This document shows positions 26,581 through 62,074 of a DNA stretch of 64,000 bases, one piece after another; position 1 is the first letter of the stretch, and each line of letters begins with the position of its first letter. This DNA comes from an uncultured Syntrophobacterales bacterium. Its GTDB lineage: Bacteria; Desulfobacterota; Syntrophia; Syntrophales; UBA5619. The stretch spans positions 35,179-99,178 of the forward strand of contig CAIYSL010000098.1 in the NCBI GenBank assembly GCA_903928915.1, given 5' to 3'. The notes under the pieces are model-generated. The model saw only the letters and a program-made list of their open reading frames with translations. It did not search any database and was not told the origin of the DNA. The translations under genes were made by a program, and so were the position numbers.

Positions 26581-26636
26581 AAGAGAAGAAAGAGGCCAAG
26601 CGGGCGAAGAAGGCCGGCAAGAGCGGAGAGATGTGA
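26523..26636 (+). CDS. small lysine-rich protein (37 aa), unannotated
   Basis: Below the ORF-track size cutoff. Consensus SD GAAGGAGG (26508-26515) lies 7 nt before the ATG. Sequence MGKDKDVKKEAKKKPSKTLKEKKEAKRAKKAGKSGEM. Third-position G+C is clearly higher in this frame than in the overlapping ygiQ tail frame. Its ATGTGA end overlaps the GTG start of the next gene. Confidence 0.45.
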   Translation: MGKDKDVKKEAKKKPSKTLKEKKEAKRAKKAGKSGEM

Positions 26637-27514
26637 GTTCTCCCGCGGCGGGACGCCTGCCGCGGCCGCTCGTCGATTGCCACGTCCACCTCTTTCCGGA
26701 CCGGCTGTTCGACGCGATCTGGCGGCAGTTCGTCACGGACTACGGCTGGAAGGTCCTCCATCAGCTCTACTGGCGCGAGTGCCTTGCCCACCTCCGCGAG
26801 CGCGGGGTGGGAACCGTGGTCTATTCCAATTACGCCCACCGCAGCGGGATCGCCCGGGGTCTCAACGACTGGAACCTGGGGGTCCTCGCCGCAGACCCTT
26901 CGCTGTTCTGCTTCGCCGCCTTTCACCCCGACGACGAGGACTGCCTCGCCATGGCGGAGGAGCTCCTCACCCACCCCCGGATCCTCGGGTTCAAACTGCA
27001 GCTCCTCGTCCAGCGCTTCCCGCCCGACGACCCGCGGCTGTACCCCCTGTACGAACTGGTGATGGCCAAGGGCAAACGGCTGCTGCTCCACGTGGGCACC
27101 GGGCCCGTGGGGAACGAGTTCGTGGGCGTCCTCCCCTTCCGGCGGCTCCTCGCCCGCTACCCCGACCTCCCCGCGATCGTCGCCCACATGGGGGCCCTCG
27201 AGTACGGGGCCTTCGGCGATCTTCTGCCCGACCACCCCAACCTCCTGCTGGACACGGCCTTCGCATTCCTCCCGAGCCTCGGCGCGGTGTGCGACCTCAG
27301 CCCCGAATTTCTGGAGCGCTGGCGTGACCGTATCCTCTACGGGTCGGACTTCCCCAACATCCTCTTCACCCGGGAGGAGGAGATCGACACCCTGCTCGGC
27401 ATGGATCTTTCTCCGGAATTCTACGCCGCGGTGTTCCGCGACAACGGCCTGCGGCTGAGCCGCGGTACGAGCCGGACGGGGGGGCAAGCCCCCCACGACG
27501 CAATCACGTCGTAA
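26633..27514 (+). CDS. amidohydrolase-family (TIM-barrel metal hydrolase) protein
   Basis: GTG 26633 gives VSSPAAGRLPRPLVDCHVHLFPD (HxH metal motif near the N-terminus). Later VAHMG and YGSDFP motifs. The longer 26456 start would overlap ygiQ. Confidence 0.8.
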   Translation: MSSPAAGRLPRPLVDCHVHLFPDRLFDAIWRQFVTDYGWKVLHQLYWRECLAHLRERGVGTVVYSNYAHRSGIARGLNDWNLGVLAADPSLFCFAAFHPDDEDCLAMAEELLTHPRILGFKLQLLVQRFPPDDPRLYPLYELVMAKGKRLLLHVGTGPVGNEFVGVLPFRRLLARYPDLPAIVAHMGALEYGAFGDLLPDHPNLLLDTAFAFLPSLGAVCDLSPEFLERWRDRILYGSDFPNILFTREEEIDTLLGMDLSPEFYAAVFRDNGLRLSRGTSRTGGQAPHDAITS

Positions 27515-28369: not shown

Positions 28370-28398
28370 TTGTAACCTTATTAATTAGGTGATAAAAA
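28370..28398 (+). promoter_or_regulatory. candidate promoter plus near-palindromic operator of the repressor gene
   Basis: TTGTAA (28370-28375), 17-nt spacer, TAAAAA (28393-28398). The spacer contains the 16-bp near-palindrome ACCTTATTAATTAGGT (28375-28390, 14/16 symmetric). The predicted transcript would begin next to ATG 28404, so it may be leaderless. Confidence 0.35.
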
Positions 28399-29363
28399 GA
28401 AACATGCCTGTGTCCATGAAAAAAATTGCCCGGCGAAGAATCGCAATCGGCATGACCGTCTCGGAATTTTGCCGGCGCGTCGGCATCTCCCGGAAGGCCT
28501 ACTACGATTGGGAAAAGAGGGCTGCTCCGCTCGCGCCGAAATACGCACAACTCGTCTCAGGGGTACTCGGGATCGCAATCGACGACCTGTCGGAGGAGGC
28601 TAACGGGCAGATGACTGATACGCATGCGGCAGTGCGACGTTTCGACATCCACGAGGTGAAAGGCCGGACCCGGTGGGCCATCGATCACATAATCACCGCG
28701 CATGCATTATCGAATGCGAAGCTCGCCAAGATCCTGGGGCTGTCAACCTCTACCGTCGATAGTTACCGGCGCGGCATCAAGACCCCCAAATTCGAGACTC
28801 TTGCCTTCATGCAGACAACCTACCGAATAAGCCTGGATTGGATGGTCGACGGTCTCGGCAGCCAATTCACGGATATTCGGGCCGCGGAGCTGTTCTCCGC
28901 TCCCCCGGCGAAGTGCGCGGGACCCGACGCCGGAAATGACGATGCAGCGCTGCCTCCCGGCGAATTCGTGTTCATCCCCCAGATGGCCGGAACCACCAGC
29001 CGGGGAGGGCTGGCGCCGGATGCGGCTACGGAAATGCGGATCGCCTTCCGCCGGGATTGGATCGCCCGCAAGGGGCTTCCGCAGGATATGTCCATCATCA
29101 AGGTACAGGGGGACAGCATGGAGCCGACCCTCCAGTCCGGCGACCTGGTGCTGGTGGACCACAGCAAGGATACGATCACCCGGGGCGGCCTTTTTGCGAT
29201 CACCATCGACCAGGAGATCCTGATCAAGCGGATTCAACCCCTCATGGGCCAAAAATTACTCGTTATTTCAGACAATTCAAAATACACCTCCCTCGAAATC
29301 GCCGCCGAGGAGATCCACATCAACGGGAAAGTAATCTGGTTTGCCCGGGAACTGGAGAGATGA
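28389..29363 (+). CDS. CI/LexA-type repressor: two HTH domains plus C-terminal S24 self-cleaving peptidase domain
   Basis: 324 aa. Alternative starts at ATG 28404 or 28416. XRE-type HTH (MTVSEFCRRVGISRKAYYDWEK). Second CI-like HTH (LSNAKLAKILGLSTSTVDSYRRG...ISLDWMVDGLG). S24 motifs GDSMEPTL and ILIKRI. G+C is visibly lower than in the flanking DNA. Confidence 0.85.
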   Translation: MIKRNMPVSMKKIARRRIAIGMTVSEFCRRVGISRKAYYDWEKRAAPLAPKYAQLVSGVLGIAIDDLSEEANGQMTDTHAAVRRFDIHEVKGRTRWAIDHIITAHALSNAKLAKILGLSTSTVDSYRRGIKTPKFETLAFMQTTYRISLDWMVDGLGSQFTDIRAAELFSAPPAKCAGPDAGNDDAALPPGEFVFIPQMAGTTSRGGLAPDAATEMRIAFRRDWIARKGLPQDMSIIKVQGDSMEPTLQSGDLVLVDHSKDTITRGGLFAITIDQEILIKRIQPLMGQKLLVISDNSKYTSLEIAAEEIHINGKVIWFARELER

Positions 29364-29438: not shown

Positions 29439-29467
29439 TTGACAACCGTCAAATTTTGACCTTGTAT
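29439..29467 (+). promoter_or_regulatory. candidate promoter/operator of the ABC-fdrA-arcC operon
   Basis: TTGACA (29439-29444), 17-nt spacer, TTGTAT (29462-29467). The -35 is part of the perfect palindrome TTGAC-aacc-GTCAA (29439-29452). A third TTGAC lies at 29456-29460. Confidence 0.4.
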
Positions 29468-29513
29468 GGGGCCAGGAACAGCAATCTCCGCTGCGAAAGG
29501 AATCGGTCAGCCC

Positions 29514-31052
29514 GTGAACCCGTCCCCCCTCCTGTCCCTGCGAGGAATCACAAAGTCCTTCCCGCCTGTCATGGCAAACGACCGCGTCGACCTCGACATG
29601 TACGGCGGAGAAATCCACGCACTCCTGGGGGAGAACGGCGCCGGGAAAAGCACCTTGATGAAGGTCCTCTACGGGTTTTACCGGGCCGACGCGGGAGAAA
29701 TCCGCGTGGAGGGCAAGCCCGTGAGCATCCGCTCGCCCCGGGACGCCCGCAGGCATGGCATCGGGATGGTGTTCCAGGACTTCATCCTGATTCCGGCGTT
29801 GACGGTGGCCGAGAATATCGCCCTCTTCTTGCCCGACTTGCCCTTCATCCCGGACGGTGCCGCCCTCAGCGGCCGTATCGAGGATATTTCGGCACGCTAT
29901 TCCCTGCGGGTAAACCCCGCCGCGCCCGTCTGGCAGCTCTCGGTCGGCGAACGCCAGAAGGTGGAGCTGTTGAAGCTGCTCCTGGCGGATGCACGCATCC
30001 TGATCCTCGACGAACCCACGCGCAGCCTGGCCCCCCATGAGACGGCGGGATTGTTCCGGGTGCTGGCGAACCTGCGGCGGGACGGGTACGCGGTGACCGT
30101 CATCACCCACAAGATGAAGGAGGTCCTCGGGTACGCCGACAGGATCACGGTCATGCGCCGCGGTACGATCGCCGGCGCCCTCCGCGGCACCGAGGCCACG
30201 GAGAGCGGGCTCGTCCTTATGATGTTCGGAAAACCCGCTGCCGAATCTTCCCGCGGCCGGACTGCCCCTCCGGCTGGGGAAGGGCCGCCCTTCCTGGAGT
30301 TGAAGGGGATCGCCCTGCGGCCGGAAGGAACCGGCCCGGGACTCAACGGGATCAACCTGACGGTCAGGCCCGGTGAAATAGTCGGTATTGCCGGTGTGTC
30401 CGGCAACGGCCAGCGCGAGCTGGGTGATGTGATCCTGGGGATCGAGCGCGCTGTGCGGGGGGAAAAGATGCTGGGGGGCGCGGATGCGACCGACTGGTCC
30501 GTTGCGCAGGTCCGCAGCAGCGGCACGGCCTTCATCCCGGAAGACCCGCTGGGCATGGCCGCGTTTCCCTGGTTGAGCGTGCAGGAGAATATGGCGATGG
30601 CCGACACGGCCCGGTACGCCCGGCACGGGGGGCTGTCGATGGACTGGGAGTCCGTCCGCTCCGACTTGCAGGCCTCGCTCAACCGGCTCGGGTTTGCCAT
30701 CCCGCCCGTCCATGTGCCGCTGGGCGTTCTCTCCGGCGGAAACATCCAGCGGATGATCCTGGCCCGGGAGATGGCCCACAGTCCCCGTTTGATCATCGCC
30801 TTTTACCCTACCCGCGGCCTCGACGTGCAGAGCGCCGTTGCCGCCCGCGAGGTGCTCATGGATTCCCGCGACGCAGGGGCGGGGATTCTGCTGATCTCGG
30901 AAGACCTGGACGAGCTATTCGCACTCAGCGACCGCCTGGCGGTGATGCTCCGCGGCGAGATCGTAGCCACGGGCATCCCGCAGGACCTCACGCGGGAAGA
31001 AATAGGCTACCTGATGACCGGGTCGAAAGGAGCAACGGCGCAGCGTGGATAA
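29514..31052 (+). CDS. ABC transporter ATP-binding protein with duplicated ATPase domains (BMP/sugar-type importer)
   Basis: Walker [10 protein letters not shown]. Second nucleotide-binding domain ([11 protein letters not shown]). LSGGNIQR signature. Start set at GTG 29514 ([16 protein letters not shown]); the track start ATG 29466 would lie inside the predicted promoter. Confidence 0.85.
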
Positions 31053-32094
31053 CGTCACGAGGGCAACGGGGACGGTGCGGAGCCGGCGGGCGGCGGCAGT
31101 CATCCGCTTCGGCGGCCTGATCGGGTTGGCCCTGGCGGTATTTGCCCTGGTCTTGCTGGCGTTCGGACAAAACCCCTTGCGCGCCTATGCGGATATCTTT
31201 CGGGCCACCCTCGGCAGCCCCTACGGGTTCTCGGAAGTACTGGTAAAGATGATCCCCCTCGTTCTGACCGCCCTGGCCGTGGCGATTCCCGCGAAGATCT
31301 GGCTGATCAACGTGGGAGGAGAAGGCCAGCTGTTCATCGGGGCACTGTTCGCGACCTGGGGCGCCCTGCATTTCGGGTCCCTGCCCGCCTGGCTGCTCCT
31401 GCCGCTGGTTTCCCTCCTCGGATTCCTGGGCGGCGGGTTATGGGCGCTGCTGTCCGGGATCCTGCGGGCCAAGGGATGGGCAAGCGAGACGATATCCACC
31501 CTGCTGATGAACTACGTAGCCATCCTGCTGGTGAGCTTCTTCGTCTTCGGTCCCTGGAAAGATCCGGAAAGCGCCAACTACCCCCAAAGCGCCCCCTTTC
31601 CCGATGCCGCCGTCCTGCCCTCCCTGTTCGAGTCGCGGGTGCACCTGGGGGCGCTGTTCGCGATCGTCGGCCTCCTGCTGTTTTACGTCGTCATGTCCCG
31701 GACGCGGTGGGGGCTGGAGATGCGCGCCCTGGGCATCAATCAGGAGGCGGCGCGGCGCAACGGCATTTCCGCCGACCGCTATATCCTGCTTTTGATGTTC
31801 ATCGGCGGCGGCATGGCCGGCCTGGCCGGCATGGGCGAAGTCTCGGCGATTCACGGGCAGCTCCGCCCGAGCCTCTCCCCGGGCCTGGGATACACGGGCT
31901 TTCTGATCAGCTGGATAACCATGGGCAGCCCGTCGGGCATCGTGGCGGCAGCGTTTCTGATTTCCCTGATCACGGCGGGCGGGGATATTCTCCAGATGAC
32001 GCACCGGATCCCGGCGGCGGCCATCCACATCCTGATGGCCCTGGTATTGTTCGTCGTGCTAGCCAGACGCAGCGGCACGGGGGGGAAGAAATGA
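31045..32094 (+). CDS. ABC transporter permease (BMP-type system, first permease)
   Basis: 349 aa, about 9 TM helices. Overlaps the ATPase stop by 8 nt and the next gene by 4 nt. Confidence 0.85.
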
Positions 32095-33008
32095 ACGAGA
32101 TGCTTTTCATCAGCATGCTGTCCGGCGCGATCCTTTCCGGCACCCCGCTCCTGTACGCGACCCTGTCCGAGCTGATCGGGGAACGGGCCGGGATCATCAA
32201 CCTCGGCCTGGAGGGGGTCATGCTGATCGGGGCGGTGGTGGGATTCGTGACGACGGTGCAATTCGGCAATCCGGTGCCGGGCCTGATCGCGGCCGCCCTG
32301 GCCGGGGCCCTGTTCAACATGATCTTCGCGTTTATCGTGATCTCCCGGCGCGCCAACCAGCTCGCCAGCGGCCTGGCGCTGATGTTCTGCGGCGTCGGCC
32401 TGAGCGCACTCATCGGCGCCCCCTTCATCGGCCGCCGGATCGAGGGATTGAGCCAGGTCCGGATCCCCCTGGCATCCGATCTCCCCTTTTGGGGACGCGC
32501 CTTTTTCCAATACGACATCCTGGTGCTGCTGGCGATCCCGACCGCGGTTGCCGTCTGGTGGCTTCTGTTCAAGACCCGCTGGGGCTTGAGCGTCCGCGCC
32601 GTCGGAGAAAACCCGACCGCTGCCTATGCGGCGGGCAGGAATCCCCACCTGGTGCAGTATCAGGCCCTGCTCATTTCCGGATTCCTGGGAGGGGTTGCCG
32701 GCGCACATCTCTCCCTGGCCCTGGCGCACACCTGGGCCGAATGGATGACGGCGGGACGCGGGTTCTTCTCCGTGGCCCTCGTGATCTTTGCGAAATGGCA
32801 CCCGCTGCGGGCGATCGCCGGCGCGCTGCTGTTCGGCGGGGCGATCTCCCTGCAGCTGCAGATGCAGGCCCGGGGGGTTCCGGTTTCCTCCTTCCTCCTG
32901 GACATGCTTCCCTATGGATTAAGCCTGGCCGTTCTCATCCTCTGGAGCAGGGCCCGCCGGTCCGCAGTGCCCGGCAGTTTGGGGCGGGTGTTTCAGGGGA
33001 CGGAATGA
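32091..33008 (+). CDS. ABC transporter permease (second permease)
   Basis: ATG 32091 overlaps the previous stop (ATGA). [44 protein letters not shown] is the typical branched-chain/ribose-type permease N-terminus. Confidence 0.85.
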   Translation: MNEMLFISMLSGAILSGTPLLYATLSELIGERAGIINLGLEGVMLIGAVVGFVTTVQFGNPVPGLIAAALAGALFNMIFAFIVISRRANQLASGLALMFCGVGLSALIGAPFIGRRIEGLSQVRIPLASDLPFWGRAFFQYDILVLLAIPTAVAVWWLLFKTRWGLSVRAVGENPTAAYAAGRNPHLVQYQALLISGFLGGVAGAHLSLALAHTWAEWMTAGRGFFSVALVIFAKWHPLRAIAGALLFGGAISLQLQMQARGVPVSSFLLDMLPYGLSLAVLILWSRARRSAVPGSLGRVFQGTE

Positions 33009-33066
33009 GCGGGGTCACGGTAACGGTTCGGCGATTGAAAACGACAGAGGCATGAAAGGAGAACGC

Positions 33067-34167
33067 ATGAAAAACACGGCACGTCTCATCCTGCGGGAGT
33101 TGGCGATTCTGGCCAGCGCACTCTTGGCCCTGGGAACGGTTGTTCCTTCCGCCGCGCAGGCGCAGGAAAAACTGAAGGTGGGCATCGTCCATATCGGCTC
33201 CATCCACGATGCCGGCTATAACCAGGCCCATGCGGAGGGGGTGCAGATCATGAAGAAGAATCTGCCCAATGTGGAGGTCATCCAGGTCGAGAATGTCCCG
33301 GAAGGGGCGGACGCGGAACGGGTCATGGAGAACATGATCAAGCAGGGCGCAAAGCTGATCATCCCCGCGAGCTTCGGGTTCATGGACCCGGCGCTGCGGG
33401 TGGCCAAGAAGTACCCGGAGGTGAAGTTCGTCCATCCGGGCGGGTATAAGCTCGCCCCGAACATGGGCACCTACTGGGCCAGCACCCCCGAGGCCTTCTA
33501 CCTGATGGGGATCGCGGCGGGCAAGACCACCAAGACGAACAAGGCGGGATACGTGGTCGCCCTGCCGATCAGCTTTTTCCTGGCCAACGTCAACGCCTTC
33601 CAGCTCGGCGCCCGGTCGGTCAACCCCAGGTTCGAAACCCGCGTGGTCTTCATGGGAACCTTCCTCGACGCCCCGAAGGAGGCCATCGCGGCGAATGCCA
33701 TCCTCGACATGGGCGCGGACGTCCTGGGGGTGATCGTCGACTCCCCGATTGCGGTCGTGCAGGCAGCGGAAAAGCGCGGCGCCTACTCGATCGGCTACCA
33801 CTACCTGGGGGTGCAGAAATTCGCGCCCAAAGGGTGGATCAGCGGTATCGCCTTTACCTGGGGCGAACTGTACACCCGGTTTGCCAAACAGGTCATGGAC
33901 GGCACCTGGAAGAGCGAGGCCCTGTTCGGGAACCTGAGCAGCGACTACCTGACGATTTCCCCCTTCGGTCCGGCAGTGTCGGCGGATGCGGTAAGAATGG
34001 TCAACGACACGAAGCGGGAGTTCATCGCCGCCCGGAAGCATGTCTTCGCGGGCCCGCTGAAGGACAACAAGGGGGCGGAGCGGGTGAAGGCCGGGGAGGT
34101 GTTCCCCCTGCAGGGGATCGGGAAGATGGACTGGCTGGTCGAGGGGGTCATCGGGCAGCCCAAGTAA
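33067..34167 (+). CDS. BMP-family (basic membrane protein/PnrA-like) ABC substrate-binding protein
   Basis: ATG 33067 after SD AAAGGAGAA. Signal peptide, then KLKVGIVHIGSIHDAGYNQAHAEG, the BMP lipoprotein-family pattern. Confidence 0.85.
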   Translation: MKNTARLILRELAILASALLALGTVVPSAAQAQEKLKVGIVHIGSIHDAGYNQAHAEGVQIMKKNLPNVEVIQVENVPEGADAERVMENMIKQGAKLIIPASFGFMDPALRVAKKYPEVKFVHPGGYKLAPNMGTYWASTPEAFYLMGIAAGKTTKTNKAGYVVALPISFFLANVNAFQLGARSVNPRFETRVVFMGTFLDAPKEAIAANAILDMGADVLGVIVDSPIAVVQAAEKRGAYSIGYHYLGVQKFAPKGWISGIAFTWGELYTRFAKQVMDGTWKSEALFGNLSSDYLTISPFGPAVSADAVRMVNDTKREFIAARKHVFAGPLKDNKGAERVKAGEVFPLQGIGKMDWLVEGVIGQPK

Positions 34168-34183
34168 GCGGGGTGTTTCCGGC

Positions 34184-35131
34184 ATGATCCGCACGCGGGC
34201 GGACGATTCCGCCGCCTTGCTCTGCCAGGCGGAATGCATCGGGACCAGGGCGAAATCCCTGCTGGCCCTGCCGGGATTCTCCGGCCGGGTGGCTGCGGCC
34301 CTCGCCGACGTCGCCTACCTGACCGGGCGAGACGGTGAGGTCCTGTGGCTGTTTTGGGAAGCGGTGCCGCTCCACGGCCGCGGCATCGGCCTTTCCTTCC
34401 CGCCGGATTGCCTCCGCTCGGGCCAGCCCTTCCGGGTGGAGGGGCAGGATCTTGCCGTCGGCGGAAGGCTGGTGATCGCCCTCGGTCGGGCACGGGAATG
34501 GACCCCCGCTTCCCCCGGACCGGGGGACGTGGAACCGCTGGCCGGGCTGCAGGAGGCGGCCCGACGGTTGTTGGGAGCCCTGTGCCCGGCGATCGGCCCC
34601 GGCGAGCCCGGCGGGGTGATGCGCGGCCTTGCCTCGCTCTGTACCGGAGGCGACGGGGCGCCCTGTCCGTGCGAGGCGCGGCAGCTCCCGTTTCTGGCCC
34701 CGGTTTTCGACCTGATGGGGCAGTGTCTCTCCGGGGGGTTGACCGGAATCGAGTCCCGCGCCCGGGAACTTATCGGCCTCGGCCCGGGATTGACCCCCTG
34801 CGGGGACGATTTTCTCGGCGGCCTTCTGTTTGCGGCCTCCTGGCTGCGGAACGCCTATCCCGGAAACCCGGGCGTGGCTGCGCAGCCCACGGGCGCACTG
34901 GTGCGATGGGCGCACAACCGGACGCATCCCGTCAGCCATGCCATTCTGGCCGATCTGGCCGACGGACAGGGGCCTGAACCGCTCCATGCCCTGCTCTGGC
35001 TGCTCGCAAGCGGGGAAGAGCGCGGCGGCCGCACGATCGCGGCGGCAGATCGTCTGGCACGGATCGGAACTACGACCGGATGGTACATCCTGGCGGGCGT
35101 ACTTACCTGGTTACTCTCGGTTGACGCATAA
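34184..35131 (+). CDS. ylbF: DUF2877-domain protein (YlbF/AllH-like)
   Basis: 315 aa. GLGPGLTPCGDDFLGGLLFA and HPVSHAILADLADGQ motifs, as recalled for the YlbF family. Sits immediately upstream of the ylbE and fdrA homologues. Confidence 0.7.
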   Translation: MIRTRADDSAALLCQAECIGTRAKSLLALPGFSGRVAAALADVAYLTGRDGEVLWLFWEAVPLHGRGIGLSFPPDCLRSGQPFRVEGQDLAVGGRLVIALGRAREWTPASPGPGDVEPLAGLQEAARRLLGALCPAIGPGEPGGVMRGLASLCTGGDGAPCPCEARQLPFLAPVFDLMGQCLSGGLTGIESRARELIGLGPGLTPCGDDFLGGLLFAASWLRNAYPGNPGVAAQPTGALVRWAHNRTHPVSHAILADLADGQGPEPLHALLWLLASGEERGGRTIAAADRLARIGTTTGWYILAGVLTWLLSVDA

Positions 35132-35149
35132 GGAGGAGAACGAGCAGCG

Positions 35150-36406
35150 ATGGATGAAATCAAGCAAAAGATAGAAACGGCAAACGCGGAGACGGTGCGC
35201 CGCATCAACGAGGCCGATCCCGTCCTGGTGGATATCGCCCCTGCCGGCGAGGTCATCCCCGGTCTACACGACCGGATGGTCCTCCACTCGGGCCCCCCGG
35301 TGGATTGGCAGCGGATGAGCGGCGCGCAGCGGGGCTCCATGCTGGGGACCGCGCTGTTCGAAGGCTGGGCGAAGGACGCCGGGGAGGCGAACGACCTGTT
35401 CGCCAGCGGTGCGATCCGGTTTGAGCCCAACCACACCCACCAGGCCGTCGGTCCGATGGCCGGGACCATCTCCGCGTCGATGCCGGTCTGGATCGTGGAG
35501 AACAAGGCCTTCGGCAATCGCGCCTTCTGCCGGCAGGTGGAGCCGAGCCAGCAGTTCGGTAACTACCGTGACGACGCCCTCCAGGGGCTGCGTCTGTGGA
35601 GGGACCTCTGGGCCCCGGCCCTCAAGGCGGCCCTCGGCCGGATGGGAGGCCTCCCCCTGAAACCGATCATCGCCAAGGCGCTCCAGATGGGCGACGAGTT
35701 GCACAACCGCCCCGTTGCCGCGTCGAGCCTCTTTGCCAATGCCATGGCCTGCCCGCTGATCGAGGCAAACGTCCCGAAGGATCGGCTGCTGGCCACCCTC
35801 AGGTACATCACGAACCATGAGCTGATCTTTCTCGCCCTGGCGATGGCGGCCGCCAAGGCATCGGCAGACCCCGCAACGGGCGTCGAGTACAGCACGGTGG
35901 TCACGGCCATGGCCCGCAACGGCACCGACTTCGGCATCCGGGTCAGCGGCCTGGGCGAGGAATGGTTCACCGCCCCGGCGCCCAGGGCCGAGGGGCTGTA
36001 CTTCCCCGGGTACACCAAAGAGGACGGCGGCGCGGATATGGGCGATTCGGCCATCACCGAGACGGTCGGCTGGGGGGGGTTCGTCCTCGCCGGGGCAACC
36101 GGGATCCTCGCCCTGGTGGGGGGGACGCCGGAGGAGGCCATGTCCTACAGCAGGGATATGCGGCGGATCACCGTAACCGCCAGCCCGAACTACCGGATGC
36201 CCATCCTGGGCTTTCAGGGTGCGCCGGTGGGAATCGATATCCGCAAGGTGGTCCAGACCGGCATCGTGCCGGTGATCGACACGGCGATAGCCCACCGCGA
36301 GCCCGGCCACTCCATCATCGGCGCCGGCATCGTCCGGGCCCCGCTGGACTGCTTCAAGAAGGCGCTCCTGGCCTTCAGCAGGAAGTACCAGCCGAATCGA
36401 ACCTGA
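35150..36406 (+). CDS. ylbE: DUF1116-domain protein (YlbE/AllG-like)
   Basis: 418 aa. SD AAGGAGGAGAA. Size, position between the ylbF-like and fdrA-like genes, and overall pattern (VLHSGPPVDWQRMSG...) fit the YlbE family. Confidence 0.75.
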   Translation: MDEIKQKIETANAETVRRINEADPVLVDIAPAGEVIPGLHDRMVLHSGPPVDWQRMSGAQRGSMLGTALFEGWAKDAGEANDLFASGAIRFEPNHTHQAVGPMAGTISASMPVWIVENKAFGNRAFCRQVEPSQQFGNYRDDALQGLRLWRDLWAPALKAALGRMGGLPLKPIIAKALQMGDELHNRPVAASSLFANAMACPLIEANVPKDRLLATLRYITNHELIFLALAMAAAKASADPATGVEYSTVVTAMARNGTDFGIRVSGLGEEWFTAPAPRAEGLYFPGYTKEDGGADMGDSAITETVGWGGFVLAGATGILALVGGTPEEAMSYSRDMRRITVTASPNYRMPILGFQGAPVGIDIRKVVQTGIVPVIDTAIAHREPGHSIIGAGIVRAPLDCFKKALLAFSRKYQPNRT

Positions 36407-36421
36407 CAGCGGGGTGGGCCG

Positions 36422-37978
36422 ATGTGCACCGGAATTGTGATCAGAAAGAATGAATACCACGACTCGGTCTTCCTGATGCGCACCGCCGGGCGCATCTCCG
36501 CGCAGGAGGGCATCGCCCAGGCCCTCCTGTTCATGGGCACCGAGAAGAACAAGGAGCTCCTCGCGACCCTGGGTTTTCCTGCCGGGGAGCTGGCGCCCGC
36601 CGGACCCACCGACCTCATCCTGGCGGTTCGGGCGCAGACCCGGCCGCGCCTGGCGGCTGTCCTGGAAAACCTCGACGGGTGGCTGCGGGTCGAGCCGGGC
36701 CGGGGAACCGTGCCGGCGGCGCGGGACCTGGACGAAGCCCTGATCCGCCTCCCCCGGGCCAACCTGGCCGTCATCTCGGTGCCCGGGATGTACGCGGCCG
36801 ACGAGGCACAGAAGGCCCTGGAACGGTCGCTGAACGTCTTTGTGTTCAGCGACAATGTCCCGGTGGAACGCGAGCGCGCCCTCAAGCGGTATGCCAGCGA
36901 CCGCGGCCTGATCGTCATGGGGCCCGATTGCGGAACGGCGATCATCGGCGGCATCGGCATCGGCTTCGCCAATGCGGTCCGGCGGGGCCCCGTCGGCGTC
37001 ATCGGCGCTTCGGGCACGGGGATCCAGGAGTTCACCACGCTGGTGCACCGGGCCGGCTCGGGCATCTCCCAGGCAATCGGAACCGGCAGCCGGGATGTTT
37101 CCGACGCCGTGGGGGGCATCTCGCTGCTGGCGGCGCTGCGGGCCCTTGCGACGGACGCGGCCACCGGGACCATCGCCGTGGTATCCAAACCGCCGGGACC
37201 GCGGACCCTGGAGGCGCTCCTCCCGCGGGTCCTTCAGTCCACCAAACCCGTGGTGCTCTGTTTCCTGGGGGGGACCGAACGACCCGTCTCCCTCACCGGG
37301 CCCCACCGGACTGCGGCCACGCTCGACGAGGCCGCTGCCCTGGCGGTTCGGAACGCCACCGGCAATCTCCCGCCGGACGGCGAACCGAGCAGCGCCGGGT
37401 TGGCGGACCGCGCCCTGGGCGAGCGCAAGGCCATGCATCCGGCGCAGCGATACGTCCGGGGCCTTTTTGCGGGCGGTACGTTCTGCTATCAGGCCCAGCA
37501 GATCTTCCGGGATGCGGGGGTCGCCGCGTACTCCAACGCCCCGATCGCCGGGAACCCCGGACTGACCGATCCGCTGCAAAGCCGCGAGCACAGCCTGATC
37601 GACCTGGGCGCCGATGAATTCACCGCCGGGCGCCCCCACCCGATGATGGATTCGCGCCTGCGCCGGGAGCGAATCCTCGCCGAAGCGGCCGATCCGGCGG
37701 TGGCGGTGCTGCTCGTCGACTTCCTCCTGGGGTTCAATGCCGCGGCCGATCCGGCGGGCGAACTGGCCCCGGCAATTGCCGAAGCCAAGGGGGAGGCGGA
37801 GCGGCACGGGAGGTTCCTCTCCGTTGTCGCGTCGGTGTGCGGTACCGAGGAAGACCCGCAGGGGCTCGACCGGCAGGTCGCCTGCCTTGAGGAAGCCGGG
37901 GTCGTCGTTCTGCCCAGCAGCGCTCAGGCCGCCCGGTTTGCGGCGCTGCTGGCCGTTCAGGCAGGAGGAGCGGGCTGA
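36422..37978 (+). CDS. fdrA: FdrA/AllF-like protein (succinyl-CoA-synthetase-alpha-like fold), lacking the usual C-terminal segment
   Basis: 518 aa. MCTGIVIRKNEYHDSVFLMR..., GPDCGTAIIGG, VIGASGTGIQE and GRPHPMMD match the FdrA sequence as I recall it. Confidence 0.85.
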   Translation: MCTGIVIRKNEYHDSVFLMRTAGRISAQEGIAQALLFMGTEKNKELLATLGFPAGELAPAGPTDLILAVRAQTRPRLAAVLENLDGWLRVEPGRGTVPAARDLDEALIRLPRANLAVISVPGMYAADEAQKALERSLNVFVFSDNVPVERERALKRYASDRGLIVMGPDCGTAIIGGIGIGFANAVRRGPVGVIGASGTGIQEFTTLVHRAGSGISQAIGTGSRDVSDAVGGISLLAALRALATDAATGTIAVVSKPPGPRTLEALLPRVLQSTKPVVLCFLGGTERPVSLTGPHRTAATLDEAAALAVRNATGNLPPDGEPSSAGLADRALGERKAMHPAQRYVRGLFAGGTFCYQAQQIFRDAGVAAYSNAPIAGNPGLTDPLQSREHSLIDLGADEFTAGRPHPMMDSRLRRERILAEAADPAVAVLLVDFLLGFNAAADPAGELAPAIAEAKGEAERHGRFLSVVASVCGTEEDPQGLDRQVACLEEAGVVVLPSSAQAARFAALLAVQAGGAG

Positions 37979-38151
37979 TGTCCGAGAAGATCGAGCAGTT
38001 GTTGGAGAACGGCCCGCGGGCCGTCAACATCGGAGTGGCGGATTTCGCCGACAGCCTGCACCGCCAGGGGGCGGACGTCGTCCAGGTCACCTGGACCCCC
38101 CCGGCGGACGGCGACGCGGAAATGGACGCGATCCTCGCGCAGCTCCTCTGA
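37978..38151 (+). CDS. 57-aa ORF resembling the detached C-terminal segment of FdrA
   Basis: ATG overlaps the fdrA stop (TGATG). MSEKIEQLLENGPRAVNIGVADFADSLHRQGADVVQVTWTPPADGDAEMDAILAQLL resembles the C-terminal ...VINIGL..FA..L......VV...W.P.AGG... tail of E. coli FdrA (from memory). High third-position G+C. Confidence 0.55.
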   Translation: MSEKIEQLLENGPRAVNIGVADFADSLHRQGADVVQVTWTPPADGDAEMDAILAQLL

Positions 38152-38225
38152 GCGTTGCCGCGCGAGGCGCTTCCGGCGGTGTCATCCCGGGGAGAGGGTG
38201 AAACGACCGTCGCATGAGGGAAGCG

Positions 38226-39200
38226 ATGAAGAACAATCGTCAGCGGATCGTGATTGCCCTGGGGGGAAACGCCATCAAGCTTCCCCGCCAACAGGGGACC
38301 CATGAGGAGCAGCGGGCCGGCATCCGGTCCGCATCGCTGTGCATCCTGGAATTCATCAAGAACGGGTTCGACGTCGTCATCACCCACGGGAACGGCCCCC
38401 AGGTGGGAAGCCTGCTCATGCAGCAGGAGGCGGTCGCCTCGCAGCTGCCCCCCCAGCCGATGGACATCTGCAACGCCATGACCCAGGGGCAGTTGGGGTA
38501 CATGCTGCAACAGGCGCTGATGAACGAACTCAAGGCGTTGAACCTGAATTTCAACGTGGTGACGATGATCGCGCAGGTGCTGGTGGATCGGAACGATCCG
38601 GCCTTCGCGAATCCCGCCAAACCGGTGGGCCCCTTCTACGATGCCGCGGCCAAGGAACGGCTCGCCGCGGAACGGGGCTACCTGATGAGCCGGGTCCTGC
38701 CGCAGGGAGAGCGACCCTTCCGCCGCCTGGTGCCTTCGCCGGACCCGATCAGGATACTGGAGGTGAAGGCCCTGAAGAAGGTCGTCGACGCGGGCATGAT
38801 CGTCATCGCCGCCGGCGGCGGCGGCGTTCCGGTCATTCTCAGCGAACAAGGGGAGTTCGAGGGGATCGAGGGGGTCATCGACAAGGACCTGTCCGGAGAA
38901 AAGCTGGCGGAGGCGGTGGCCTCTGATTTCTTCATGATCCTCACGGACGTGCCGAACGTGAAGATCGGGTTCGGCAGTCCGGAGGAACGTCCGCTCGGTC
39001 GCCTGGACGTGCGGGAAGCCAGGCGCTATCTGCAGGAAGGACAATTCCTGGCCGGCTCCATGGCCCCCAAGGTCCTGGCCTGCATCCGCTTCATCGAATA
39101 CGGGGGCGACGAGGCGATCATCACCTCGCCGGACAAGGCGTGGGCTGCCCTGGAGCGGAACGAGGGGACCCACATCGTTCCCGGGAGGGGGGAGCCATGA
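38226..39200 (+). CDS. arcC: carbamate kinase
   Basis: ATG 38226 after SD GAGGGAAG. MKNNRQRIVIALGGNAI...VITHGNGPQVG...GGGGVPV are carbamate kinase signatures. Confidence 0.9.
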   Translation: MKNNRQRIVIALGGNAIKLPRQQGTHEEQRAGIRSASLCILEFIKNGFDVVITHGNGPQVGSLLMQQEAVASQLPPQPMDICNAMTQGQLGYMLQQALMNELKALNLNFNVVTMIAQVLVDRNDPAFANPAKPVGPFYDAAAKERLAAERGYLMSRVLPQGERPFRRLVPSPDPIRILEVKALKKVVDAGMIVIAAGGGGVPVILSEQGEFEGIEGVIDKDLSGEKLAEAVASDFFMILTDVPNVKIGFGSPEERPLGRLDVREARRYLQEGQFLAGSMAPKVLACIRFIEYGGDEAIITSPDKAWAALERNEGTHIVPGRGEP

Positions 39201-40144
39201 AGCACACCCACATCATCGAGGCCCAGCAGTTCAACAAACGGGCCCTGCAGGAGATACTGAGCGCGGCCGACCACATCCGGGAACGTGCGGAGCGGAACCT
39301 GCCGCTGGACCTGCTGAAGGGGAAGCTGCTGGGCAACCTCTTCTACGTACGGTCGATGCGCACCAATCTCTCCTTCGACTGTGCCATGAAGCGATTGGGC
39401 GGACAGGTGACCCCGATCGATTTCCCGGAGGAGTTCTCCTCCGAGCTGAGCGGGGGAGGCTTCGAAGACACGATACGGGTCGTAAGCTCGCTGGTGGACC
39501 TGATCGTACTGCGCCACTATCAGAGCGGTTCGGCGAAGCGGGCGGCGGACATATCGTCCGTTCCGGTCATCAACGGCGGGGACGGACCCGCGCAGCATCC
39601 GACCCAGGCGCTGATCGATCTGTACTGCATCGAAAAACTCAAAGGGGGGATCGACGGCGTCTCCATCGCCTTTATCGGCGACCTGCTGAACAGCCGCACC
39701 GTCCGGTCGCTGGTGTATTTTCTGGCGAAGTACTCGGGGATCAAGGTCTCCTTCGCCTCGCCGCGGGCGCTGCGGATCGGGGAGGATACGCAGGGGTACC
39801 TGCGGGAAAACGGCATTCCCTATGGCGAATCAGTGGACAACGCCGAAGAATTGCAGGACATCGTCTCAGGGGCGGACATTCTCTACCTCACCCAGATACC
39901 CGCGGCCCGCTTCACCGCGCATCCCGAAGACTACGCCCGCTCCCGGGAAATCTTCCGGATCGACCGGGAGTTACTGAAGATCATGAAGAAGGACACCTAC
40001 ATCATGCACCCGCTGCCCCGGGATTATGAGCTTCCCGGGGAAGTGGACGGGGACCCCCGGGCGGTGTATTTTGACCTGATCAGATACGGACAGTTCCTGC
40101 GGATGGGGCTGCTCTGCCTGGTGCTCGGGGTGTCGGCCGACTGA
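39197..40144 (+). CDS. aspartate/ornithine carbamoyltransferase-fold protein with non-canonical active-site motifs
   Basis: ATG overlaps the arcC stop (ATGA). 315 aa. HPTQ and HPLPR motifs are retained, but SMRTN replaces STRTR, SGGGFEDT replaces KGE(T/S)LxDT, and LTQIP replaces TRVQ. Confidence 0.8.
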   Translation: MKHTHIIEAQQFNKRALQEILSAADHIRERAERNLPLDLLKGKLLGNLFYVRSMRTNLSFDCAMKRLGGQVTPIDFPEEFSSELSGGGFEDTIRVVSSLVDLIVLRHYQSGSAKRAADISSVPVINGGDGPAQHPTQALIDLYCIEKLKGGIDGVSIAFIGDLLNSRTVRSLVYFLAKYSGIKVSFASPRALRIGEDTQGYLRENGIPYGESVDNAEELQDIVSGADILYLTQIPAARFTAHPEDYARSREIFRIDRELLKIMKKDTYIMHPLPRDYELPGEVDGDPRAVYFDLIRYGQFLRMGLLCLVLGVSAD

Positions 40145-40193
40145 CGTCCGGCGAAACGGCGGGCCTGCCGGAGCGCCTGCCCGCAGCGGCGTG

Positions 40194-41669
40194 CTACATG
40201 AAGATCTCGACCGACCGCTGGGCGATCAGCAGGAATCCGCGGGGAAAGATCCCCATGTGGAAGAGCGCCCAGACGCTGACGGCGATGACCACCCCGTAGG
40301 CCGGCGAGAAATCCGGTCGTCCCGCCGGTTCGGCATCGGCCGCCGCTTCGCGGAAATACATGTACATCACGACCCGGAGGTAGTAGTAGGCGGCCACGAC
40401 GCTGTTGAGCACCCCGATGACGGCCAGCCAGTAGTACTTCGCCTTGATGGCCGCGCTCAGGACGTAGAATTTCCCCATGAACCCCGCCAGGGGCGGCATC
40501 CCTGCCAGCGACAGGAGGAAGACCGTCATCGCGATCGCGATCAACGGGTGCCGGCCGGCCAGCCCCGCGTAGTGCTCGATCCCCGTCCGCTGCCTGCCCT
40601 TCTGCCCGAGGATGATCACCACGGTGAAGGCGCCGATGTTCATGAAGGTGTACACGAGGATGTAGAAGAGGATGCCCACCGAGGAAAAGAGGTCGCCCAC
40701 CACGAAGGCGATCAGGATGTACCCGGCATGGGCGATGCTCGAATAGGCGAGCATCCGCTTCACGTCATCCTGCACCAGGGCGGTGATGTTGCCGATCGTC
40801 ATCGTCGCCACGGCGATCAGCCAGAGCATGCCCGACCACGCCCCGAGCAGGGGCAGGAAGGCCGTGTAGAACACCCGGAGGAAGGCGCCGAATGCGGCGG
40901 CCTTGATCCCCGTGGCCATGAAGGCGGTGATCGACGTGGGCGCCCCTTCGTACACGTCGGGCGTCCACATGTGGAAGGGGACCGCTGCGGTCTTGAACCC
41001 GAACCCGACGACAAGCATGGCGATCCCGATCATGAACAGGGGGGTCAGCTGGAACCGCCCCGAGACGATGTAGTCGGCGATCTCGCGGATGTCCAGCAGG
41101 CCCGTCGCCGCGTACACCAGCGCGATCCCGTACAAGAGAAAGGCCGTGGCGAAGGCCCCGAGCAGGAAGTACTTGAGCGAGGCCTCTGCCGAGCGGGGGT
41201 TGCCGCTCAGCATCCCGCAGAGGACGTAGATGGCGATCGACATCACCTCGAGACCGATGAAGATCGTCACGAAGTGGGTCGACGACACCATGATCATCAT
41301 CCCCAGGACCCCGAACAACGTGAGGGCGTAGTACTCCCCCTTGACGATATCCTCGCGCTCCACGTACCGCAGCGACAGGAGCGTCACGAGGATCGCCACG
41401 ATCAGCGCCAGCGCCTTGAAGAAGGTGCCGAATGTGTCGATCGTGTACAGGCCGTTGTAGACGGCGGCGCCGGCGTTCCAGAGCGACAGGGTGAACAGCA
41501 GGGCCAGACCGCTGCCGACGAGCGCCACGGCGCCTGCGATCGTTCCGACGATCGCCCGCCTGCCGAATGCGCCCAGCAGGAGCGCGGTCATCGCGCTGAC
41601 CGTTATGATCAGTTCGGGGAGAATCGGCCCGAACGCCAATTCGGGTATTTTCACGAGCATGGTTTCCAT
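40194..41669 (-). CDS. nuoN: NADH-quinone oxidoreductase subunit N
   Basis: 491 aa, about 14 TM antiporter-like subunit. Last gene of the nuo operon. Confidence 0.9.
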   Translation of the reverse strand: METMLVKIPELAFGPILPELIITVSAMTALLLGAFGRRAIVGTIAGAVALVGSGLALLFTLSLWNAGAAVYNGLYTIDTFGTFFKALALIVAILVTLLSLRYVEREDIVKGEYYALTLFGVLGMMIMVSSTHFVTIFIGLEVMSIAIYVLCGMLSGNPRSAEASLKYFLLGAFATAFLLYGIALVYAATGLLDIREIADYIVSGRFQLTPLFMIGIAMLVVGFGFKTAAVPFHMWTPDVYEGAPTSITAFMATGIKAAAFGAFLRVFYTAFLPLLGAWSGMLWLIAVATMTIGNITALVQDDVKRMLAYSSIAHAGYILIAFVVGDLFSSVGILFYILVYTFMNIGAFTVVIILGQKGRQRTGIEHYAGLAGRHPLIAIAMTVFLLSLAGMPPLAGFMGKFYVLSAAIKAKYYWLAVIGVLNSVVAAYYYLRVVMYMYFREAAADAEPAGRPDFSPAYGVVIAVSVWALFHMGIFPRGFLLIAQRSVEIFM

Positions 41670-41675
41670 CCTCTG

Positions 41676-43214
41676 TTACGGTGCGCCAAGCGGTCCCTGC
41701 ACGGCGGGGGCCCCCATGGCGGCGATCCGTGCCTTCACGTACTTGAGGTAGCCGGCCGACGATGCGTCCATCTTCCGGAGGAACAGGCCGGGATACAGCC
41801 CCATCAGAAACACGAACAGGACGATCGTGGCGAGGATGAGGGTCTCGCGCTTCGTCAGGTCGGCAAGCAGCCGGTTCGCCTCCTGGGTAATCTTGCCGAA
41901 CATCACCCGCTGGAACATCCAGAGCATGTAGACGGCCCCGAGGATCACCCCGGTGGTGGCCAGCACGCCGTAGGTGACGTTGCTCCGGAAGGCGCCCAGG
42001 AGGATCAGGAACTCCCCCACAAACCCGTTCGTCCCGGGCAGCGCGATCGAGGAAAGGGTGATGATCATGAAGAAGACGGCCAGCCGGGGCATCACCGTGG
42101 TCAGTCCGCCGAAGTCCGCGATCATCCGGGTGTGCCGCCGCTCGTAAATCATCCCGACGACGAGGAACAGCCCCCCCGTGCTGATGCCGTGGTTGAGCAT
42201 CTGGTAGAGCCCGCCCTGGAGCCCCTGCATGTTGAAGGCGAAGATGCCGAGCATCACGTACCCCAGGTGGCTCACCGACGAGTAGGCGATCAGCCGCTTC
42301 AGGTCGGTCTGCATAATGCACATGATGGCGCCGTAGACGATGCCGATGATGGCCAGCCAGGAGATCAGCGGCGTCGCCGCGACGACGGCGGCGGGGAACA
42401 GCGGGATGGCAAACCGCAAAAACCCGTACACCCCCATCTTCAGCAGGACGCCGGCCAGGATGACGCTCCCCGCGGTCGGGGCCTCGGTATGCGCGTCGGG
42501 CAGCCAGGTGTGGAACGGGAACATCGGCACCTTGATCGCGAAGGACAGCGCGAAGGCCGCAAACAGCCAGTACTGCTTGACGGCCGGCAGGCTCGCCCGG
42601 GCGAGGGTGAAGACGTTGAAGGTATAGACCCCCGTCTCGGCGGCGTAGTGGAAGTAGAGGACCATGATGGCCAGGAGCATCAGCACGCTCCCCACCATCG
42701 TGAACAGGAAGAACTTGATCGCCGCGTAGATCCGCCGCGGGCCTCCCCACACCCCGATCAGGAGGTACATCGGGATCAGCATCAGCTCCCAGAAGATGTA
42801 GAACAACACCATGTCGAGGCTGCAGAGGGCGCCGATCATCGCCGTCTCGAGGACGAGGAAGGAGACGTAGTACTCCTTGATCTTGGTCTCGATGGCCTTC
42901 CAGGAGCAGAGGACGCAGACGATGGTCAACAGCGTCGTGAGCAGCACCAGGAGCATGCTGATGCCGTCGATTCCCACGAGGTAGCTGATGCCGAATTCGG
43001 GGAACCACTCCCGCTGTTCCACGAACTGCATCTGGACGGCCCGCTCGTCGAACCAGAAGAACAGCGGCAGGGAGAGGATGAACTCTCCGATCGTCAGGAC
43101 CAGCGCCGCCGCCTTGATGGTGAGCGTCTGCCGGCGCGGCAGCAGCATCAGCACCAGGGAGCCGGCGAGCGGCAGCAGGATCAGCGCACTCAAATAGGGA
43201 AAGGGTTCATTCAT
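41676..43214 (-). CDS. nuoM: NADH-quinone oxidoreductase subunit M
   Basis: 512 aa. Antiporter-like, with motifs FAIKVPMFPFHTWLPDAH and AYSSVSHLG. Confidence 0.9.
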   Translation of the reverse strand: MNEPFPYLSALILLPLAGSLVLMLLPRRQTLTIKAAALVLTIGEFILSLPLFFWFDERAVQMQFVEQREWFPEFGISYLVGIDGISMLLVLLTTLLTIVCVLCSWKAIETKIKEYYVSFLVLETAMIGALCSLDMVLFYIFWELMLIPMYLLIGVWGGPRRIYAAIKFFLFTMVGSVLMLLAIMVLYFHYAAETGVYTFNVFTLARASLPAVKQYWLFAAFALSFAIKVPMFPFHTWLPDAHTEAPTAGSVILAGVLLKMGVYGFLRFAIPLFPAAVVAATPLISWLAIIGIVYGAIMCIMQTDLKRLIAYSSVSHLGYVMLGIFAFNMQGLQGGLYQMLNHGISTGGLFLVVGMIYERRHTRMIADFGGLTTVMPRLAVFFMIITLSSIALPGTNGFVGEFLILLGAFRSNVTYGVLATTGVILGAVYMLWMFQRVMFGKITQEANRLLADLTKRETLILATIVLFVFLMGLYPGLFLRKMDASSAGYLKYVKARIAAMGAPAVQGPLGAP

Positions 43215-43236
43215 CTACTCGGTACCTCTCGGTTCC

Positions 43237-62053: not shown

Positions 62054-62074
62054 CCGCGCAGAAAGGAACGATCC

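Follow-up and report, generated by a model that had tools for sequence, protein, structure and literature searches.

A mosaic operon of an uncultured Syntrophobacterales bacterium joins importer-linked AllFGH-type genes to a carbamate kinase and an atypical transcarbamylase

A 64,000-nucleotide stretch of DNA from an uncultured Syntrophobacterales bacterium (GenBank assembly GCA_903928915.1, contig CAIYSL010000098.1, positions 35,179–99,178; referred to here as the window, whose coordinates are used throughout) carries ten tightly packed genes on its (+) strand at 29466/29514–40144. They encode an ATP-binding cassette (ABC) importer, the subunits AllH, AllG and AllF with a separate 57-amino acid open reading frame (ORF), a carbamate kinase, and a paralogue of aspartate transcarbamylase (ATCase) that belongs to a clade termed here Q-I-P. 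Comparison with other loci shows that this operon is a mosaic: a block of importer, AllHGF and 57-amino acid ORF has been joined to a block of kinase and Q-I-P gene, and the two blocks are inherited separately. With moderate confidence, the two-block assembly can be viewed as a catabolic operon for nitrogen scavenging, in which an imported ureide also serves to regain ATP.

Two separately inherited blocks

The gene order of the operon recurs on two independent contigs (locus L004, of assembly GCA_040960625.1, and locus L088) and is repeated in a third locus, L099, where the last gene is absent; the proteins of the three loci are 41–83% identical to those of the window. The repetition of the order shows that the packing is conserved and is not a chance arrangement. 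A sequence-only reading of this DNA had seen in it one dedicated ten-gene module. L099 speaks for two blocks instead, as it has the first block together with another kinase. Its genes are in the order kinase, ABC, Bmp, AllH, AllG, AllF and 57-amino acid ORF, followed by a 2-hydroxyacid dehydrogenase gene, and there is no ATCase-like gene. AllH, AllG and AllF of L099 are 46–74% identical to those of the window, but the kinase is only 43% identical.

The second block consists of the carbamate kinase and Q-I-P genes. In nine of nine independent loci the kinase gene is directly upstream of the Q-I-P gene, often with a start/stop overlap, and four different gene contexts surround the pair. Context A is the importer and AllHGF arrangement found in the window, L004 and L088. 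Context B (L007, L089 and L090) comprises a gamma-aminobutyrate-type aminotransferase, a bona fide ornithine transcarbamylase (OTCase) and arginine/ornithine fermentation genes. Context C (L005 and L095) has an Xdh-type molybdoenzyme, an OTCase, a hydantoinase, a genuine ATCase and a PyrE-like gene. Context D (L094) contains two Xdh-type sets, amidohydrolases, UbiD and a YgfK-like reductase, and no other transcarbamylase. Identities to the window proteins run in parallel for the two genes, at 75, 75, 64, 69, 65 and 61% for the kinases and 74, 71, 65, 63, 62 and 54% for the Q-I-P proteins. The constant adjacency and the parallel identities indicate that the kinase and Q-I-P genes are a co-inherited two-gene unit. 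The Q-I-P gene had been regarded as a companion of the AllFGH genes; with this adjacency in four contexts, it belongs with the kinase.

The clusters of L005 (3798–11736) and L095 (4025–10625) have three transcarbamylases in a row, i.e. OTCase, ATCase and a Q-x-P paralogue, along with the carbamate kinase, the hydantoinase-type amidohydrolase, the Xdh-type enzyme and the PyrE-like phosphoribosyltransferase. No M20 amidase is found among the called genes of these two clusters, which hints at an all-phosphorolytic breakdown of purines or orotate.

The Q-I-P transcarbamylase and its kinase

The last gene of the operon (39197–40144, + strand) encodes a protein of the ATCase fold with the OTCace_N (PF02729) and OTCace (PF00185) domains. 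It scores 260.7 bits with TIGR00670 (cut-off 236.95) and 238.7 bits with NF002032, under the cut-off of 263; the genuine ATCase of L005 scores 391 and 333 bits, respectively. The protein is 43–50% identical to plant and archaeal ATCases, and its AlphaFold model (pLDDT 82) has TM scores of 0.86–0.91 to ATCase structures. Public annotation lists the homologues as aspartate carbamoyltransferase.

That the last gene encodes an aberrant transcarbamylase was correctly recognized from the sequence. In ATCase, the aspartate carboxylates are held by R229, Q231 and, from the neighbouring chain, K84, and E50 brings about domain closure. (Residue numbers are those of E. coli PyrB; the reference sequence agrees with the PDB alignments.) The window protein has the changes E50V, T53M, R56N, K84S, R229Q and Q231P, by which all three aspartate-site residues are replaced, and it keeps S52, R54, T55, R105, H134, Q137, R167 and the H-P-L-P-R motif. 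The retained residues, with the last motif in the form HP[LF]PR, are present in 115–120 of the 120 best homologues. Q229 is found in 120 of these 120 and P231 in 118; K84 is mostly replaced by A, T or S, and the T53 and R56 positions vary across the clade. As the motif is conserved across the 120 homologues, the residue loss does not represent decay. The pattern suggests an enzyme that is still functional but has an altered site for its second substrate.

The motifs of the clade are S[MIL]RT, HPTQ, HP[LF]P and Q-I-P, the last being the form of the window protein and Q-[ITMV]-P the form across the clade. As a control, 80 ATCase loci were used, all genuine and of at most 47% identity, from among the matches listed in a genome-contig scan with the clade alignment. 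All 80 keep R229, and most also have the full STRTR motif, K84 and R-x-Q. Among 1.84 billion representatives of 50% identity clusters, one further Gln229 protein was found in the set whose motif was read; of the proteins examined there, two others are non-Arg229 variants (E and S) and the remainder are ordinary ATCases. The rarity of Gln229 in this set shows that the Q-I-P clade is narrow. A degenerate DNA pattern for D-x-x-Y-x-T-Q-x-P...F...H-P-[FL]-P-R-x-x-E matches the window and 11/11 Q-I-P loci and none of the 80 ATCase loci. The same pattern gave no matches on metagenome contigs, although the L088 contig Ga0436470_0000016 (JGI) fits it; long runs of N or the membership of the set may explain this.

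Other variants of ATCase are found in Acidobacteriota, Hyphomicrobiales, Chloroflexota and Ignavibacteria (L034–L037, L039, L042, L044, L045, L050, L056, L060, L064 and L082). These keep R229 and have D or P at position 231 or a deletion there, as in T-R-I-D-R, T-R-I-L-P and T-R-I-R-P, and K84 is often E, Q or T. Most are encoded 1–2 kb downstream of a transcarbamylase with S-L-R-T-R and H-C-L-P, an acetylornithine-type motif.

The carbamate kinase gene (38214–39200, + strand; alternative start at 38226) scores 373.7 bits with TIGR00746 (cut-off 358.25). Its product is 61–75% identical to kinases that precede QIP-type genes elsewhere, compared with 35% identity to E. coli AllK and 41% to YahI; taken together, the E. 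coli allK and yahI products and the Peptoclostridium acidaminophilum kinase are 35–42% identical to it.

AllH, AllG, AllF and the 57-amino acid ORF

The three proteins encoded between the importer and the kinase clearly belong to the AllFGH family. The AllH/YlbF-type (DUF2877) subunit (34184–35131, + strand) matches PF11392 with 57 bits over residues 196–308, its C-terminal 113 residues. Over 153 amino acids it shares 33% identity with E. coli AllH, and it is 41–47% identical to its orthologues in L004, L088 and L099. The AllG/YlbE-type (DUF1116) subunit (35150–36406, + strand; PF06545, 252 bits) shows 44% identity to E. coli AllG and 45% to YahG, and matches PDB entry 3clq with E=1.5e-106. 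The AllF/FdrA-type subunit (36422–37978, + strand), which is succinyl-CoA-synthetase-alpha-like, scores 455.3 bits with NF004760 (cut-off 433). Its identity is 40% to E. coli AllF (over 512 amino acids) and 41% to YahF, and it matches PDB entry 3dmy (FdrA) with E=5e-79. The structures 3dmy and 3clq (a DUF1116 protein) have been solved, and neither bears a functional annotation.

The window AllF is without the C-terminal tail present in E. coli AllF. A free-standing 57-amino acid ORF (37978–38151, + strand) follows it and corresponds to positions 503–554 of the NF004760 model. This ORF aligns to residues 507–554 of E. coli AllF, i.e. the tail, and also to the N-terminal extensions of YahG (residues 3–46) and of the P. 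acidaminophilum DUF1116 protein (residues 6–48). A separate ORF of 56–57 amino acids is kept in L004, L088, L098 and L099. The possibility of a frameshifted fdrA was rejected, as the ORF is separate in these four other loci and is fused to differing partners elsewhere. It is a small conserved module at the F/G junction, free-standing in some lineages and joined to one or the other partner in others.

It should be pointed out that E. coli has two sets of these genes, AllFGH and the uncharacterized YahEFG, and that the window AllF and AllG are 40–45% identical to both. Bit scores of the window proteins against the All and Yah sets are 303 and 347 for F, 338 and 362 for G, 153 and 220 for the kinase, and 50 and 39 for H. 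The proposal that the substrate differs from that of E. coli is not demonstrated, as AllF and AllG are about equally far from AllFGH and YahEFG, and oxalurate is neither favoured nor disfavoured by these identities. The absence of canonical allantoin genes from the window, also noted from the sequence, holds: tblastn searches (E<1e-3) with E. coli allA/B/C/D/E, gcl and glxK gave no match in the 64 kb. The second E. coli K-12 set (yahE–yahJ, L096 7926–14508) consists of DUF2877, FdrA, DUF1116 and kinase genes (yahE-F-G-I) and then an amidohydrolase gene, yahJ.

The importer and its binding protein

The operon begins with the gene of an importer ATPase with two cassettes (ABC_tran x2; 29466–31052, + strand). 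An alternative GTG start at 29514 gives 512 amino acids, and this is the start chosen by gene callers on identical contigs. The best NCBIfam match is the ATPase of a BMP-type ‘B6’ transporter, under its cut-off. Two permease genes follow, at 31045–32094 (alternative start at 31072) and 32091–33008 (both + strand, and both BPD_transp_2 with 128 bits); the ATGA of the second overlaps the stop of the first. The periplasmic binding protein (33052–34167, + strand; alternative start at 33067) is of the BMP family (PF02608, 144 bits) and of the AtzT/3s99 subfamily; its sequence shows a signal peptide without a lipobox Cys. It matches AtzT (6pi5) with E=2.3e-82 and about 50% identity over the full length, and 3s99 with E=7e-68. 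The importer had been described as of the base-binding type, and these similarities bear this out.

Complexes of AtzT with guanine and 2-hydroxyatrazine are known, and the Brucella protein 3s99 is adenine-bound (PMC6834077). The aromatic sandwich and the Ser-Phe backbone contact of these proteins are common to the window protein: Y45, S97 and F98 of AtzT correspond to Y56, S107 and F108, and W194 to F204, i.e. the Tyr is kept and the Trp is a Phe. However, the side chains of AtzT that contact guanine, E165, N218 and N220, are replaced by F175, I228 and D230, and the nearby T139 by F149. Across 121 homologues of at least 73% identity, all nine pocket positions show little or no variation, and F175, I228 and D230 are kept in 116–121 of them. 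Since the guanine-contacting residues are replaced, the ligand of the window protein is probably neither guanine nor adenine.

The binding protein is about 80% identical across six loci, and in all six its gene adjoins the AllG gene. These loci include L097 (Methylomirabilota) and L098, where AllG is 43–46% identical and the genes are divergently arranged. An Amidohydro_2 gene at 26456–27514 of the window was considered as a conserved partner of AllG, as Amidohydro_2 genes are also found in L097, L098 and L099, and was rejected. There is essentially no similarity among the four proteins, and the sole match is a marginal one of 76 amino acids between L097 and L098.

Proposed function and alternatives

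In the preferred model, the importer, presumably of high affinity, would take up a flat urea-like or heterocyclic compound that is neither guanine nor adenine, its binding protein being a descendant of purine-base binders without the guanine- and adenine-reading residues. An enzyme made of AllH, AllG, AllF and the 57-amino acid protein would then use phosphate to split a carbamoyl group off this compound, or off a close derivative, and so form carbamoyl phosphate; phosphorolysis at this step is proposed by analogy with E. coli AllFGH (PMC11326118). The carbamate kinase, presumably working in the catabolic direction, would convert carbamoyl phosphate and ADP to ATP, NH3 and CO2. The Q-I-P protein, translationally coupled to the kinase, would most simply be an active transcarbamylase with a second substrate other than aspartate, and would provide a second route into carbamoyl phosphate. 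The carboxylate ligand R167 is kept, and the pocket is neutral where a second carboxylate would sit; the second substrate is therefore probably an amino compound that is N-carbamoylated, has a neutral side chain and bears a single carboxylate.

The general concept of ureide phosphorolysis that feeds a carbamate kinase, put forward in the sequence-only reading, stands by analogy. The same reading saw a fermentation module with ATP gain. Import by an ABC transporter costs about 2 ATP per molecule, so that no net gain can come from a single carbamoyl phosphate. A fermentation module is doubtful in view of this cost; scavenging of nitrogen, with part of the energy recovered, is the better fit. A bolder version of the scheme, which we consider quite unlikely, is that the kinase and Q-I-P pair is a portable, hitherto unrecognized ATP-recovering unit for N-carbamoyl amino acids whose side chain is neutral (ureido or amide). 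In series with AllH/G/F and the 57-amino acid protein, it would act on a diureido compound taken up by the importer, for example allantoate or 2,3-diureidopropionate, and both carbamoyl groups would be lost by phosphorolysis and not by hydrolysis. The two ATP per molecule gained in this way would offset the cost of ABC import.

Several points weigh against nitrogen scavenging by this route. There is no ring-opening or deaminating enzyme in the operon, and the imported compound would therefore need to serve as a substrate directly. AllF and AllG are equidistant from AllFGH and YahEFG, which makes even the type of reaction an extrapolation. Catalysis by the Q-I-P protein could be impaired by its changes at E50 and, within the STRTR motif, at T53 and R56. 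The Amidohydro_2 protein of the window is not orthologous to the AllG-adjacent ones elsewhere. In addition, long contigs were preferred when the context loci were picked, and the wide scans gave no unbiased counts.

Perhaps, as in E. coli, the operon serves anaerobic allantoin use and carries out its oxamate branch. The importer would then take up oxalurate, or allantoin or allantoate that is processed by enzymes encoded elsewhere; AllHGF would be a true oxamate carbamoyltransferase, and the ATCase-like gene a passenger that came with the kinase. The FdrA, DUF1116 and DUF2877 genes adjoin a carbamate kinase gene just as in allFGHK, the window AllH is nearer to E. coli AllH than to YahE, and the 2-hydroxyacid dehydrogenase that follows the block in L099 could make oxalurate from ureidoglycolate. 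However, no allB/C/D/E homologue is present in the 64 kb, AllF, AllG and the kinase score slightly better against YahF/G/I than against AllF/G/K, and the gene order is H-G-F, compared with F-G-H in E. coli. Importer-linked relatives also keep company with isochorismatase/biuret-type or Amidohydro_2 genes and not with allantoin genes (PMC12625717). On balance this explanation is possible but unlikely.

Two other explanations concern the Q-I-P protein. It may be a non-catalytic pseudoenzyme that binds carbamoyl phosphate and serves as a structural or regulatory partner of the kinase, e.g. in channelling or sensing, with AllHGF as the sole source of carbamoyl phosphate. The kinase is its only constant neighbour in four unrelated enzyme contexts, often with overlapping genes, and the clade lacks the conservation that active ATCases show at T53, R56, E50 and K84. 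In Pyrococcus, carbamate-kinase-like enzymes are known to form complexes with transcarbamylases. On the other hand, at least 115 of the 120 sequences retain the carboxylate-binding R167 and all the residues in contact with carbamoyl phosphate or active in catalysis (R54, T55, R105, H134 and Q137), the Q-I-P replacement is itself conserved, suggesting a defined new pocket, and L094 has no other carbamoyl-phosphate-forming enzyme nearby; a pseudoenzyme is decidedly improbable. Very improbable indeed is an anabolic pair, in which the kinase is reversed as a carbamoyl-phosphate synthase and the Q-I-P protein is the working ATCase of the lineage for pyrimidines. The public annotation would agree with this, as would a TIGR00670 score just over the cut-off. 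Yet the ligands of the aspartate beta-carboxylate are replaced (R229 in 120/120 and Q231 in 118/120), as is K84 in most sequences, and a genuine ATCase (391 bits, with STRTR, K and RIQ) shares the cluster with the paralogue in L005 and L095. Moreover, pyrC and pyrI are not adjacent, and the surroundings are an importer and catabolic genes.

Relation to known systems

Biochemical work established that E. coli AllFGH interconverts oxalurate plus Pi and carbamoyl phosphate plus oxamate; it is encoded beside a catabolic kinase (PMC11326118, PMC9843812). The window operon has the same three families and an adjacent kinase, and presumably the same logic, whereby a ureide and Pi give carbamoyl phosphate and then ATP. 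It differs from allFGHK in the order H-G-F, in the AllF tail as a separate 57-amino acid gene and in having no allantoin genes nearby, and adds a dedicated ABC importer and the ATCase-like gene.

Comammox Nitrospira and ammonia-oxidizing archaea have clusters of bmpA-nupABC and allFGHK (with biuH/trtA/atzF), in which upstream purine genes are absent; the authors infer use of purine or urea breakdown products (PMC12625717). A BMP-type importer, AllFGH-type genes and a kinase are common to these clusters and the window operon. As far as their description allows a comparison, the nitrifier clusters carry isochorismatase/amidase genes, with no ATCase-like gene reported; the window operon has no hydrolase gene and adds the kinase-linked transcarbamylase paralogue. 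AllFGH-type genes and a kinase are likewise found with base-type importers and isochorismatase-type hydrolases in P. acidaminophilum and in L097, as in the nitrifiers (PMC12625717). The P. acidaminophilum locus (L093, plasmid NZ_CP007453.1, 3607–14210) consists, in this order, of genes for a PucR regulator, a xanthine permease, a cysteine hydrolase, another xanthine permease, DUF2877, FdrA, DUF1116 and arcC. This cultured anaerobe, with its AllFGH-type and kinase module, could serve as an experimental model.

Pseudo-ATCases, proteins that carry an ATCase annotation but no longer have the R-x-Q motif for aspartate, have been described, among them the proposed ureidoglycine carbamoyltransferase of Rubrobacter xylanophilus (PMC4016543). 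Group 1 of these is encoded beside a carbamate kinase, and carbamoyl-phosphate release from a purine-derived ureide was proposed for it (Barba et al. 2013, PMC4016543). At H265–P268 and R230–Q232, the motifs are HPLA and AIA, AIS or SIA in group 1 (which also has STRT), H[ST]LP and GX[SC] in group 2, and HSLP and VXP in group 3 (PMC4016543). The Q-I-P clade fits none of the three groups and is set apart by the motifs of Table 1 of that work (PMC4016543). It shares kinase adjacency with group 1 (in 9/9 loci), but no allantoinase gene adjoins the window gene.

In the reductive (2,8-dioxopurine) uric acid pathway, YgeW and YqeA together gain ATP from a ureido group of 2,3-diureidopropionate (bioRxiv 10.1101/2025.04.24.650524; PMC12507026). 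The transcarbamylase gene of this pathway is directly beside the carbamate kinase gene, as in the window, and L094, L005 and L095 carry Xdh-type, hydantoinase-type and YgfK-like genes like those of the pathway. However, YgeW is a knotted transcarbamylase of another subfamily, with the window protein scoring only 32 bits on TIGR03316, and the window operon is without the ring-reducing or ring-opening genes.

Already published, then, are the function of AllFGH (2024), the kinase-linked pseudo-ATCases (2013) and the bmpA-nupABC and allFGHK clusters of nitrifiers (2025). The operon had been called an uncharacterized module; this no longer applies to the co-location of importer and allFGHK (PMC12625717), but it does to the Q-I-P clade and the mosaic. 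What is new is the definition of the Q-I-P clade, strictly linked to the kinase in four contexts; a binding protein whose conserved pocket is non-purine and whose gene is strictly linked to that of AllG; the mobile 57-amino acid module; and the mosaic nature of the operon.

AllFGH-type enzymes were assigned a reaction only in 2024, and their paralogues, such as E. coli YahEFG and many environmental copies, are still without a substrate. The operon offers a compact test system, and a binding protein with an invariant pocket is suited to ligand screening. The ligand would name the substrate for the importer-linked AllFGH modules of sulfate-reducer-type bacteria, Methylomirabilota and probably nitrifiers. 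The Q-I-P protein represents a well-defined uncharacterized branch of transcarbamylases that is annotated everywhere as ATCase, which leads to mis-annotation of pathways. If active, it would be a further way for anaerobes to regain ATP and ammonia from urea-type nitrogen compounds.

Operon layout and neighbouring genes

The ten ORFs had been described as packed on one strand with four overlaps, and all are found as claimed; the family calls of all ten were confirmed by Pfam and NCBIfam profile searches. As read from the sequence, the GTG start at 31045 lies inside the preceding gene, which stops at 31052, and the other start/stop overlaps are ATGA at 32091–32094, TGATG at 37976–37980 and ATGA at 39197–39200. 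The remaining intergenic gaps are 43, 16, 18, 15 and 62 nucleotides. Gaps of 60 nucleotides or less had been stated; this is correct for all but the last, between 38151 and 38214, which is 62 nucleotides and becomes 74 with the kinase start at 38226. A consensus promoter scan found no promoter-like sites inside the operon, and eight terminator-like sites compared with 7.3 expected from shuffles represent no excess. An Rfam search gave no match, and hence no riboswitch was detected upstream of the operon. The evidence fits a single transcription unit but does not prove it, and the genes may well be co-transcribed.

Upstream, at 28389–29363 (+ strand), is a candidate regulator gene with two HTH_3 domains and a Peptidase_S24 domain (LexA/CI-like) by Pfam, a self-cleaving type of repressor, which may be tied to the operon by its position. 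It also precedes the operon in L001 and L002, both contigs being of the same population, and L099 carries a GntR regulator in its place. The upstream gap of 102 nucleotides (150 to the 29514 start) contains a palindrome read from the sequence, TTGAC-AACC-GTCAA (TTGACAACCGTCAA), at 29439–29452 (+ strand), which is a possible −35 element or operator. The palindrome is below the size limit of the repeat finder, and the consensus promoter scan of the region gave nothing.

The operon ends at 40144, where it faces the convergent nuoN, nuoM and nuoL genes of the (−) strand (40194–45225, with nuoL at 43237–45225). A (+) strand ORF of 1020 amino acids at 40191–43253 was rejected as an eleventh gene; it has no Pfam match and overlies nuoN/nuoM on the (−) strand. 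The G+C content of the window is about 66%, and high G+C yields many opposite-strand shadow ORFs here. The closest relatives of the window are metagenome-assembled genomes labelled Thermodesulfobacteriota, Deltaproteobacteria or Smithellaceae.

About 20 kb downstream of the operon, at 59816–63064 (+ strand), are genes for a molybdoenzyme of the Xdh/aldehyde-oxidase family of 745 amino acids (Ald_Xan_dh_C, MoCoBD_1 and MoCoBD_2) and then a FAD-binding subunit of 329 amino acids. The nuo, feoB, tauE and SDR genes separate the operon from them. The molybdoenzyme is 36% identical to the Xdh-type protein of L005, a possible link to purines.

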